Source: Eledone cirrhosa (taxonomy: Eukaryota). From it: a stretch of DNA of 64,000 nt. The notes below the pieces were generated by a model, which saw only the letters and a list, made by a program, of their open reading frames with translations, did not search any database and was not told where the DNA came from. Made by a program: the position numbers and the translations under genes. Positions within the stretch are counted from its first letter, which is position 1; every line of letters begins with the position of its first letter. Location of the stretch: assembly GCA_964016885.1 (NCBI GenBank), contig OZ024741.1, positions 181,784,001-181,848,000 of the forward strand, given 5' to 3'. Shown one piece after another: positions 11,870 to 60,585 of the stretch.

Positions 11870-12940
11870 GCACGCCTTAAGAGATAACAGTACCAATGAC
11901 AGAGTTAGAGACATATATAACAACATAGATAGCAATAGTAATAGCTTTACTTTAGGAATTAGGAGCGACCGTGACGGAAAATGCAACTGTCGTGACAGGG
12001 AGGCTGCCCTGTCAGGGGAAACTGCCTGACTGATAAGGTTGTTTATAGGTGCACCGTAACTAGTCATTTCAGAGTTAAACACTATATAGGAGCCACCTCT
12101 GGCCAGTTTAAAACGAGATTTAGAACGCATCTCCACTCTTTCAGGAACAAAAAATTAAGGCGCTCCACATCGCTTGCCAACTATGTCACCACATTGCAAG
12201 ACGCCAACATAAGCTTCTCCACACACTGGGATATTGTCAGTAGGGCTGCACCCTACAACTTCAGGGGGAAATGCCAGCTCTGCCTCGTGGAGCTGTACTA
12301 CGTTATAAGAACACCCCATGAGCTCTTAAACAGCCGAGCAGAATCAGTTATTAATTGTAAACACCGGGTACAGGCGTCGTATTTTGCCTGGGAGGCGACT
12401 GTGACATGAAAACTACGAACTGGGTCCCCCTGCCCGAACCATAACACCCCAGTGGGCACGCAGTATGAACAAACATCTGTGAACCAAATGTACACCGCAG
12501 ACCATACTCAAACAAACATTAGTGAAGCAACATCCACTAAATAATAAATGGACACCCCAGACCCGACTTGTACTGGCACTAGTGAAACAATACACATAAT
12601 ATAAAGATGCTAAACACCAGCATATGAACAGGCATAAAAATCCACATCACTCTCACCCCCTCTCTCTATATATATGCATGTGTGTACATGTACCCCCCCC
12701 CCCACATACACACACAAACGTACCCACACCCCCCACACACATATATCTTTTTAAAATTTGTGTTGTATATTCTGAAGATGAGGTCAGACCATAATTCCAT
12801 CTTAGTAACACCTGGACCTATCGATTCATGTATTGATAGATCTCAATCTTATAGATTAAAGTGTGATTTTGTCCTCTGAAACAATCGTATACAAATAAAC
12901 AATTTTACAAGAATTTGATTGATTTTCTCCTAACGTAATT
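11870..12940 (+). mobile_element. 5'-truncated Penelope-like element: frameshifted GIY-YIG endonuclease + 3' pLTR
   Basis: GKCNCRDR..CPVRGNCL, VVYRC...HYIGATSGQFKTRF, W-IVSRA, CQLCLVE...LLNSR...CKH. It ends at (TA)n. Confidence 0.88.
12763..12894 (+). ncRNA. Hammerhead-like motif with long stem II
   Basis: TTGTA-tatt-CTGAAGA-tGAGG...~85 nt...CCTCt-GAAAC-AATC-GTA-TACAA. Confidence 0.55.
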
Positions 12941-13760
12941 TATATATATATATATATATATATATATATATATATATATATATATATATATATATATACC
13001 ACTCATATAAAATGGTACTAAGTTACAAAGTATATAATGGCTATCTTGCTCTTTACTAACTGTACTTTCATTAATTAATGAAGAGGTTTGAAGGATGTAC
13101 TAAAATGATTAATTATTTCATTAGTAAGATAGTAACTTAACATATGGCTCTTATATAAAATTATGCTGGAAGATTTTGATTTAGATAGGAACCCAATGAA
13201 ATGACTTTTTTTTCATCGTATAACCAGAGCTGGCTTAGGTCAGGCTAGTATAAAAAATTATTTTAGTAAATCTACATTTTCGCAATATAGAAATCAATAA
13301 AAAATTTAAAACTGAATTACTAGACATACGCTATAAATCTTATAAAATATTACTAAATTATACACACATAGGCACACTTATATGTGTTTATGTGCGCGTG
13401 TGTTTATACATGTTTGCGTATACACACACGCGGACAGAGGCACGTTCATACTCGCGCACTCATATATATATATATGTATAGTAGCAGTACATCTGTTTTC
13501 GTCTGTTTCGTAATTTATGAAAATATATGAAAAGAGAACTTGCTTTAGGATATTTTGTTTCTCTATCTCTACCTCCCTCTCTCTTTCTCTCTATCCATCA
13601 ATCTATATCTATATTTATATCATATATTTATATATATATATATATATATATATATATATATATATATATATATGTATGGGTGTGGGTATATATATGTATG
13701 GGTGTGGGTGTATATATATATATATATATATACATACATACATACATACACACATACATA

Positions 13761-58715: not shown

Positions 58716-59254
58716 CTGAAGGGTGGTTTTCTGCTAGTCTTTCATAATAACCCAATCATGACGTCGGATTGATCGAATATTCGCAAGCATTAATATAAGA
58801 ATTAATGTGATCAGTTAAATAAATATATAATATTACTTTATGTAACGGACTGGATACGTTTCCGCTTGTTCGTAATTTCAATTTAAACAATGTGTATTGA
58901 TCTGCATTTGTTGGATCCCGTCGGTTTCACCGATGAGCATTGGAAAAGCCTAAACGTGAAATTAACCTGTAAATGACTGAGCATTGCATAAACATGTGTA
59001 TCTTTAACGTAATTCTCAGGGAGATCCAGCGTAACGCGCTCTGTAATAAGGCGGCCCTTTAAATTATAGGTCGAACTCACTTTTGCTAGCGGAGTGAACT
59101 GGAGCAACGTGAAATGTATTTATGTATAAGTATATATCCCGGCATTTCTAAACACATGCATATATATATATACATTCATATATATATATATATATATATA
59201 TATATATATATATATATATATATATATATATATATATATATATATATATATATA

Positions 59255-60585
59255 ATTAATACAATAACAGAGATAGTTTAAAGTTAAACTCTGACTGGTA
59301 ACCATCTCACTCAACAAACATTAGGTTATATTAAAATATAAACCCAATTTAAGTGTTTGGGGTGCTAACAATATGTATAATGTGGAAAAACCAGTTGTAT
59401 TATTTTATGAGATATAATTAAAGTTAAAGTATATCTCTCTTTCCAAACAATTGTTCCATTATAAGTTTTCTACAAGTTTGGGAGAATGTTTCCAGTTTAT
59501 GTAGAAGCCTAATATATATTCATGTAAGAATATATTTAGGTGGGCACTTATAAATCATCAGTGGAAGCCCATTAAACATTGATATAAGAAAACAATTTCT
59601 TACCGCTGTCAAAAATCATGTCCGTAAAGTAGCTCTCCCTCGCCTCGAATGACCGCCAAATTTGAAATTCCAGCAGTTTTTGACTGAGGAAGTATCATAG
59701 CGACACGAAGCGGGAAGGGGAGACAACTCACGAAATGAGGAAAAAAATAATATACACGCGGGTTAATTAGTTTTTTTGAAAACATTATCAATCCAACGTG
59801 TTTAAGAACTCAATTGAAAATAAAAAAATAAATACATGCTTGTATAAATTACACACGCATAAAGATATTTTCTTAGGCTAAATCAGAAGTTGTACCCGAA
59901 TAAGAACCGCTTCTCATAACCGCAGTAAATGCAGAAAGTTATGCTATAAAGGGAAAATGGGAATATAATTCTCCGGCCGAATTATTAAGAGTAAAATATA
60001 AAACACGCGGGTTAATTAGTTATTTCAAAACCAATATTAATTCCTCGTGTAAAGAACTCAATTAATAAAAGAAAATAAATACATATATGGATGTAATTAT
60101 ATACGTAGGCATATATATATATATATTTTCCTAGGCTAAAAAACAGAGAAGTTACAACCAAAAAAAGCCACAATATTTCACAACAGTAATAAATGCGGAA
60201 AGTCAAATTCATAAGGTACCTGGAAATAAACACCTCTGGCCAATCAAGAGTAAATATTTAATACAATAACAGAGATAGTTTAAAGTTAAACTCTGACTGG
60301 TAACCATCTCACTCAACAAACATTAGGTTATATTAAAATATAAACCCAATTTAAGTGTTTGGGGTGCTAACAATATGTATAATGTGGAAAAACCAGTTGT
60401 ATTATTTTATGAGATATAATTAAAGTTAAAGTATACCTCTCTTTCCAAACAATTGTTTCATTATAAGTTTTCTACAAGTTTGGGAGAATGTTTCCAGTTT
60501 ATGTAGAAGCCTAATATATATTCATGTAAGAATATATTTAGGTGGGCACTTATAAATCATCAGTGGAAGCCCATTAAACATTGAT
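59255..60585 (-). mobile_element. Partial tandem of the non-coding hammerhead-bearing repeat
   Basis: Reverse complement of 26435-27030. Ribozymes at 59441-59566 (GAAA mutated to GGAA) and 60443-60568 (intact CTGATGA/GAAA). Confidence 0.85.

Follow-up and report, generated by a model that had tools for sequence, protein, structure and literature searches.

In a 64,000-nt stretch of the Eledone cirrhosa genome (contig OZ024741.1, positions 181,784,001 to 181,848,000, hereafter the window), six type I minimal hammerhead motifs were found whose two core halves are separated by a stem II arm of 90 to 99 nt, the usual length of this arm being about 20 nt. They represent four families, A, B, C and D. 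Families A, B and D are carried by Penelope-like elements (PLEs), and family C by a repeat unit devoid of a long open reading frame (ORF). These motifs are a real and abundant structural variant within a known class of ribozymes. The variant is under selection, and its conserved domain is apparently undescribed.

Architecture of the motifs

The initial annotation of the window had placed split catalytic cores, about 85 to 100 nt apart, at six places, and at all six the CTGANGA block is indeed followed 90–99 nt further on by the second core half (Table 1). The closing helices and inner hairpins that it named were all found in the sequence. Its site list has to be amended in that two sites (C2 and C3) are on the minus strand, C2 has GGAA, and the A copy has damaged stems I and III. 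The type I core, CUGANGA ... GAAA ... UH, is present at five of the six sites, the exception being C2, which is likely inactive judging from its GGAA for GAAA. In the window the helix closing stem II measures 8 bp in B and C, 6 bp in D and 4 bp in A; over 27 relatives, 86% of the cells are paired where stem II closes beside the core. Stem III is palindromic at five of the six sites, with 8 nt in family B, for which the predicted cut site is GUC. Stem I is 5 bp long in B and C, a single pair in D (a family trait, seen in 33 identical copies) and absent (0 bp) from the window copy of A. Unlike the rest of its family, this copy lacks the proximal stem I pair, and its stem III palindrome is disrupted. 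In 75 copies of sister families, stem I ranges from 0 to 7 bp (3 bp or more in 55, 3 bp or fewer in 28). G10.1-C11.1 is retained in A and D and is absent from B and C. That the inserts are structured, as had been proposed, is borne out for three families, since compared with 500 dinucleotide shuffles the arms fold with z-scores of -4.4 (B), -6.0 to -6.5 (C) and -2.7 (D). For family A the value is merely -1.8 (p 0.056), with the arm folded 1 nt out of register. A non-circular permutation was ruled out for D, as the arm contains no second CUGANGA block.

Abundance in the genome

The pattern CTGANGA-N(75-105)-GAAACANNTGTH was run over the species' own 3.0-Gb genome together with a reversed-pattern control, and gave 13,680 matches versus 69. 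A spacing of 44–74 nt gave 6,289 matches (control 92) and a spacing of 106–136 nt gave 612 (control 84), those listed looking mostly like chance; family-like matches tail off past about 105 nt. With alternative stem III palindromes and a spacing of 68–98 nt, further sets of 2,277 (control 34) and 1,646 (control 208) were obtained. In total, more than 17,000 matches have arms of 68–105 nt, and these counts are lower bounds because cores with U4C or A9U escape the patterns. A TAGAC pattern proved unspecific (4,835 matches versus 3,967 in the control) and was kept as a source of loci only. When the first 100 of the 13,680 matches were classified by eye, 78 were of the B/D type, 15 of family C, 2 of a further type and 5 of other types. 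For each of the families B, C and D, the 40 best-scoring copies match the window at 99–100% identity, and genomic copies of A, an old family, are 76–89% identical. A metagenome scan, for which 80 of 117 stretches were listed, showed no relatives (stems in 2 of 81 matches, top model score 23 bits).

The twin-loop arm of families B and D

In B and D the arm is an irregular hairpin that contains two loops of the form A·G/N·A/U·Y, spaced by roughly one turn of the helix. From the core outwards, it consists of the closing helix, a helix of 2–5 bp, a loop in which A-N-U faces Y-A-G, a helix of 6–8 bp, a second loop in which A-N-Y faces Y-A-G, and an apical hairpin. Elsewhere in the genome, related arms occur in families E, F, G, H, I, J, K, M and Q and in L161. 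The helix under the lower loop occurs in four Watson-Crick states among the families: at the two pairs below the loop, families F, G, J, K, I and M have GT/AC, families B, D and E have AC/GT, H and Q have GC/GC, and L161 has AT/AT. A descriptor derived from the arms, and therefore partly circular, fits 35 of 42 arms as against 50 of 8,400 shuffles and none of the 15 C or 17 A arms; unmodified, it also fits the later-found family Q at 4 of 4 loci and 0 of 56 others. The arms align between families and the adjacent untranslated region (UTR) does not, with a mean z of 2.6 versus 0.1 over 28 pairs. On 27 sister-family arms, RNAalifold recovered the middle and apical helices unaided; on all 42 arms, where MAFFT had misaligned the families, it returned no structure. 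A model built from the four sister families F, G, J and K has all six window sites among its 10 window matches, D scoring 40 bits, the best copies of E, I and M 37–43 bits, and A, B and C 23–28 bits, the level of compact motifs. In a tree of C-terminal protein sequences (16 genomic rows, 10 outgroups), B, D, E, H, J, K, F and G form one clade with support 100/97, family A and another long-arm type being placed outside it. Proteins of the loop-sharing families are only 40–70% identical. Compared by eye with the respective consensuses, the loops are unlike the K-turn, sarcin/loop E, UAA/GAN and 11-nt receptor motifs. Abundant families with arms of 57–62 nt (loci L388-L415 and L433-L451) apparently have one AGU/(Y)AG-like loop and may be a single-module form of the arm; no partner ORF was found at 13 of their loci.

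Selection on core and arm

To avoid circularity, copies were chosen by the arm, the core playing no part in the choice: an arm-only pattern has 3,389 genome matches (control 0), and the first 100 of these gave a sample of 92 distinct copies. Within the mismatch limits, the 3' core half is present in 88 of the 92 and the 5' half in 79. All four letters occur at N7; C replaces U4 in 21 of 79 copies and U replaces A9 in 11 of 79, and a G at H17 is seen in 1 of 88. On a tree of 69 of these copies, the nine catalytic columns show 0.7 changes on internal branches versus 14.3 on tips, compared with 18:21 for the apical loop (p 0.009). The core is thus under purifying selection. The loop letters are constrained as well: in 34 copies selected by the core, the nine loop-motif columns give 0:4 (internal to tip changes) versus 31:18 in 13 linker and loop columns (p 0.025), although in part of these copies the pattern itself had set 3 of the 9 columns. 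On the tree of 69 copies, changes at 10 pairs outside the arm pattern preserve as opposed to break pairing in a ratio of 20:14 on internal branches versus 18:41 on tips (p 0.009), no single helix being significant. The variation at N7 that the initial annotation took as a sign of constraint does exist in family C (C1 has A, whereas both C2 and C3 have T); the constraint itself is seen between sister families and on shared branches, the best copies within a family being nearly identical.

The 27 arms of F, G, J and K pair in 84% of cells versus 32–40% in slid controls, and 66 cells changed on both sides versus 27 after shuffling (0/500). The covariation that the initial annotation proposed to test for is found between families; a strict same-branch test was negative, as set out below. 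The arm is intact even where catalysis looks weakened, namely in family D, which has one stem I pair and is young with intact ORFs, and in a subfamily whose core has A9 changed to U (loci L542-L546, L573, L589, L599, L602, L612 and L614).

Host elements

Table 1. Hammerhead motifs and their host elements in the window
Feature	Position	Strand	Remarks
Family A hammerhead motif	12772-12889	+	stem II domain 99 nt (12779-12877); old decayed copy
Family B hammerhead motif	26258-26367	+	stem I 5 bp; twin-loop domain II 91 nt (26265-26355)
Family C motif C1	26729-26843	+	multibranch domain II 96 nt, two hairpins; possible 4-5 bp pseudoknot with 5' flank
Family D hammerhead motif	33699-33807	+	twin-loop domain II 90 nt (33706-33795); single stem I pair
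Family C copy C2	59446-59561	-	97 nt between core halves; GGAA replaces GAAA
Family C copy C3	60448-60563	-	core intact; domain II 97 nt
Hydra-type PLE ORF, C-terminal fragment	11996-12409	+	Cys linker and GIY-YIG-like endonuclease; upstream of site A
Family B Hydra PLE	23429-26409	+	inverted 5' copy 23429-24168; truncated ORF 24156-25298; then 3' UTR/pseudo-long terminal repeat
Family D Hydra PLE, near full length	30831-33863	+	ORF broken near 31470 and 33050
Truncated family C unit, ORF-less	26421-27036	+	blastn to 989-nt unit
Partial tandem of family C units	59219-60587	-	cores spaced 1,002 nt

The A, B and D motifs lie downstream of ORFs with a reverse transcriptase (RT) and a C-terminal endonuclease. 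As judged from protein motifs and (TA)n ends, these elements are Hydra-clade PLEs. The marks of this clade as listed in section 11 of PMC8557442 were identified by eye in the D protein of 772 aa and in the fragments of B and A; they are RWK, DKT, a CxCX5C linker, CxxC and CxH around E and N, a GIY-YIG-like C-terminus and the absence of CCHH. Assignment to Naiad was ruled out by the C-terminal position of the endonuclease. A Pfam search with the full D protein gave nothing; one of 53 protein homologues comes from a listed Hydra host, Apostichopus japonicus (36%). The ORF fragment 389 nt upstream of the A core has 36% identity with the family D protein by tblastn. Open frames of about 790 codons are found in many family D copies. 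The element also occurs in tandems of 3,115-nt units with 772-aa ORFs, where each repeat carries the motif.

The motif is located 0.4–0.95 kb past the ORF and 42–60 nt short of the element end, so that A, B, D and the sister families have the pseudo-long terminal repeat (pLTR) location of PLE hammerheads; family C, without an ORF, has not. B and D copies terminate in (TA)n, the Hydra-clade target. Beyond the predicted cut site, B ends after 42 nt (33 copies, and the window element) or 155 nt (6 copies), D after 56 nt (16 copies, and the window element) or 165 nt (8 copies), and E, F, G, H and Q after 50–59 nt.

Families A and C and further long arms

The initial annotation suggested that the six sites may be an undescribed variant. 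PLE hammerheads with a long structured stem II do exist, but a single variant is too simple a picture: the arms of A, C and B/D are mutually unrelated, and at least four more long-arm types occur in the genome. Stem II has therefore been enlarged several times. Family A has a long hairpin, weakly supported by folding. Family C is a 989-nt unit with a longest open frame of 82 aa and no significant match to PLE proteins, and no partner ORF was found in 45 records. In several loci its units form tandems at about 990 nt spacing, with one type I hammerhead per unit, and from these sequence features family C is a non-autonomous, retrozyme-like repeat. Its multibranch arm is 94% paired over 19 sequences, with 40 cells changed on both sides versus 14 after shuffling (0/500); compensatory changes affect hairpin 1 as well as the stem III palindrome, whose inner pairs change together in subfamilies.

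Two other sets of loci extend the range of arms: an 83–84-nt type (L483-L512) dominates the set of 1,646 matches, and 90–97-nt types (L457-L482) have CG-containing stem III palindromes. Among these families, one motif lies 705 nt downstream of a Hydra ORF.

Comparison with known hammerheads

That such arms would escape standard descriptors, as had been anticipated, is confirmed. The descriptor of Cervera and de la Pena (2014) has a stem II of 3–7 bp and a loop 2 of 3–10 nt (PMC4209133), and Rfam gave zero hammerhead matches in the window (E ≤1) and in 8 short loci (E ≤10). Nor did the literature surveyed, Repbase and Dfam being outside the survey, mention PLE hammerheads whose arms are this long. 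The metazoan PLE minimal hammerheads, which cut weakly and as dimers, share with the present sites the type I order, an extra nucleotide past A9, a short stem I, a palindromic stem III, the terminal-repeat site and thousands of truncated copies; here, however, the core halves are 75–99 nt apart and the internal loops are conserved (PMC4209133). Hydra-clade PLE hammerheads (Craig et al. 2021, PMC8557442) have in common with ours the element clade, the (TA)n target and 4-bp stem III halves, but in file S2 of that study the Hydra rows have a loop 2 of 3–10 nt, and the longest in the table is about 35 nt (PLE-X1_sMoe) versus 90–99 nt here. The 'HHR_half_core' entries of Naiad, with halves 35–50 nt apart, may be related overlooked long forms, and in the sections of that paper drawn on here they are not described as folded domains (PMC8557442).

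The ribozyme of the Anolis Poseidon element PAc needs protein, its cleavage is dispensable for insertion, and the element ends mark RT starts (PMC11167929). In PAc the hammerhead lies just 5' of the internal RT starts that set the two ends of the element, and here likewise two end distances are found (42/155 in B, 56/165 in D). PAc differs in belonging to another clade and in that its ORF begins in stem II, whereas here the ATG is about 210 nt past the cut site (PMC11167929). As for family C, non-LTR retrozymes are also ORF-less tandems with one type I hammerhead per unit (PMC7229834; bioRxiv 10.64898/2026.07.22.740005); family C is unlike them in its 989-nt unit, minimal-type ribozyme, 95–97-nt multibranch arm and PLE-like (TA)n targeting.

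Possible role of the arm

We propose with moderate confidence that these are type I minimal hammerheads of PLE terminal repeats and of family C in which stem II has grown into an arm of 75–100 nt, that they would cut slowly as dimers, and that the B/D arm would bind the element's own RT/endonuclease. A read-through transcript of tandem units could pair two motifs via the palindromic stem III, and a protein on the arm may help the ribozyme to fold, by analogy with the protein-assisted Anolis ribozyme. Cleavage at the upstream copy would trim the 5' end of the mRNA. At the uncut downstream copy, the arm could keep the protein beside the internal start of reverse transcription. The presence of two like loops a helical turn apart, and their retention both in D and in the subfamily with A9U, would agree with a function other than catalysis. 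The putative RT-binding role that the initial annotation had suggested thus has indirect support. More tentatively, the twin-loop arm could be a dedicated ribonucleoprotein-assembly domain, a handle for template choice and internal start by the telomerase-related RT of PLEs. It may have grown by doubling of a loop module (arms of about 60 nt having one loop and arms of 80–90 nt two) and would outlast catalysis in D.

Several results weigh against this proposal. Related elements in the window spread with compact motifs (the one at 50075 has an 11-nt domain), so that the long arm is not required for Hydra transposition. In nearest-neighbour folding, the probability of stem II is 2–6% in C and D, and that of stem I is about 0 in B. 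Family I has the loops yet branches outside the clade, a partial sequence having been used. With the four-family model B reaches 27 bits, the level of the core only, so that for this family the case for homology depends on the tree and the motifs. Covarying pairs on the 27 arms number 12, without excess over shuffles (84/500), and helix P2b taken alone shows no difference between internal and tip branches. In the strict same-branch test, 1 compensatory event was found in 21 pairs (null mean 0.19, reached in 892 of 5,000), so that the covariation depends on a small number of deep events and on G·U steps.

The main rival reading, possible but rather doubtful, is that the arm is a domain for tertiary contacts, whose loops dock on stem I, the tail or the dimer partner, offset the weak stem I and speed protein-free cleavage. 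Contacts between loops I and II and pseudoknots do boost natural hammerheads (PMC3088659), and stem I is short, not exceeding 3 bp in 28 of 75 copies. A GC-rich helix between 5' flank and arm is 88% paired in C. Moreover, 8-bp complements link arm and tail in D (33808-33815 with 33776-33783) and E (loci L131-L149). In both families the lower loop strand of the arm matches the cut-site strand, in E over the cut site and in a register unlike that of D. However, the putative pseudoknot of C shows zero compensatory changes, the loops stay constant while stem I and tail sequences turn over, and from geometry they would lie more than 10 bp from the core, past the reach of most stems I.

It is improbable that the arm is ballast that the element tolerates, in which case every stem II-closing hairpin would be neutral and long arms would last only because they fold. 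Arm lengths from 11 to 99 nt, the several unrelated long arms and the weak folding of A would agree with this, and it may hold for A and C. On the other hand, the unpaired loop letters of the twin-loop arm are constrained across those diverged proteins, the arms and not the adjoining UTR align between families, and the family-like matches fall away above the length limit given above. Still less probable is that the conserved letters act, without any RNA fold, as a signal in the DNA (a promoter inside the pLTR) or as splice sites of a PLE intron that has been retained. PLE pLTRs do contain promoters and 5' UTR introns (PMC8557442), TAG/GT stands 17 nt upstream of GAAA in B, D and E, and a GT...AG stretch lies within the B arm. 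Yet sister families have TAGAC, TAGGC or TAGAT, each with a complementary change opposite, which fits pairing and gives no donor site, and the TAG/GT splice-site reading was ruled out on these grounds. Contigs of runs X1, X2 and X4 contain no GT-AG joint over D or B, which is evidence neither way. Finally, a folding switch, in which the cut-site strand pairs with the arm and keeps the ribozyme inactive until it is refolded by protein or by a partner, is the least likely: the 8-bp helix is present in the lowest-energy fold of D (stem II probability 0.02) and E has its complement over the cut site, but such complements were seen only in these two related families and E still folds stem II at 0.87–1.0.

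A conserved, mutable RNA module by the RT start, together with natural variants that retain it with a weakened core, lets both the role of PLE hammerheads and RNA recognition by the PLE RT be tested in the in vitro system already available. Short-loop descriptors used in hammerhead censuses overlook these arms, so PLEs scored as 'half core' or ribozyme-less may need re-inspection.

Other features of the window

Shorter hammerheads of other families, with 11–36 nt between the core halves, are present at 40531(+), 40468(-), 38965(-), 40039(-), 61801(+) and 50075(-), the last being the compact motif with 11 nt, downstream of a Hydra ORF fragment. An element at 34120-38582 and 44905-44963 has inverted arms of 1,555 nt on either side of a truncated Hydra ORF, and its compact hammerheads have a CCGAAGA (U4C) core. 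Near-perfect palindromes of inverted, truncated PLE ends occur at 30531-30838, 38778-38947 and 40366-40633. A repeat of about 190 nt, resembling a short interspersed element and present in many copies, lies at 8555-8740, 9230-9421, 9918-10101, 22419-22610, 49555-49978 and 57395-57845. A fragment of a PIF1 helicase (Helitron-like) and RT fragments of the long interspersed element type were found at 1404-1733(-), 15312-17207(+) and 20953-21312(-).
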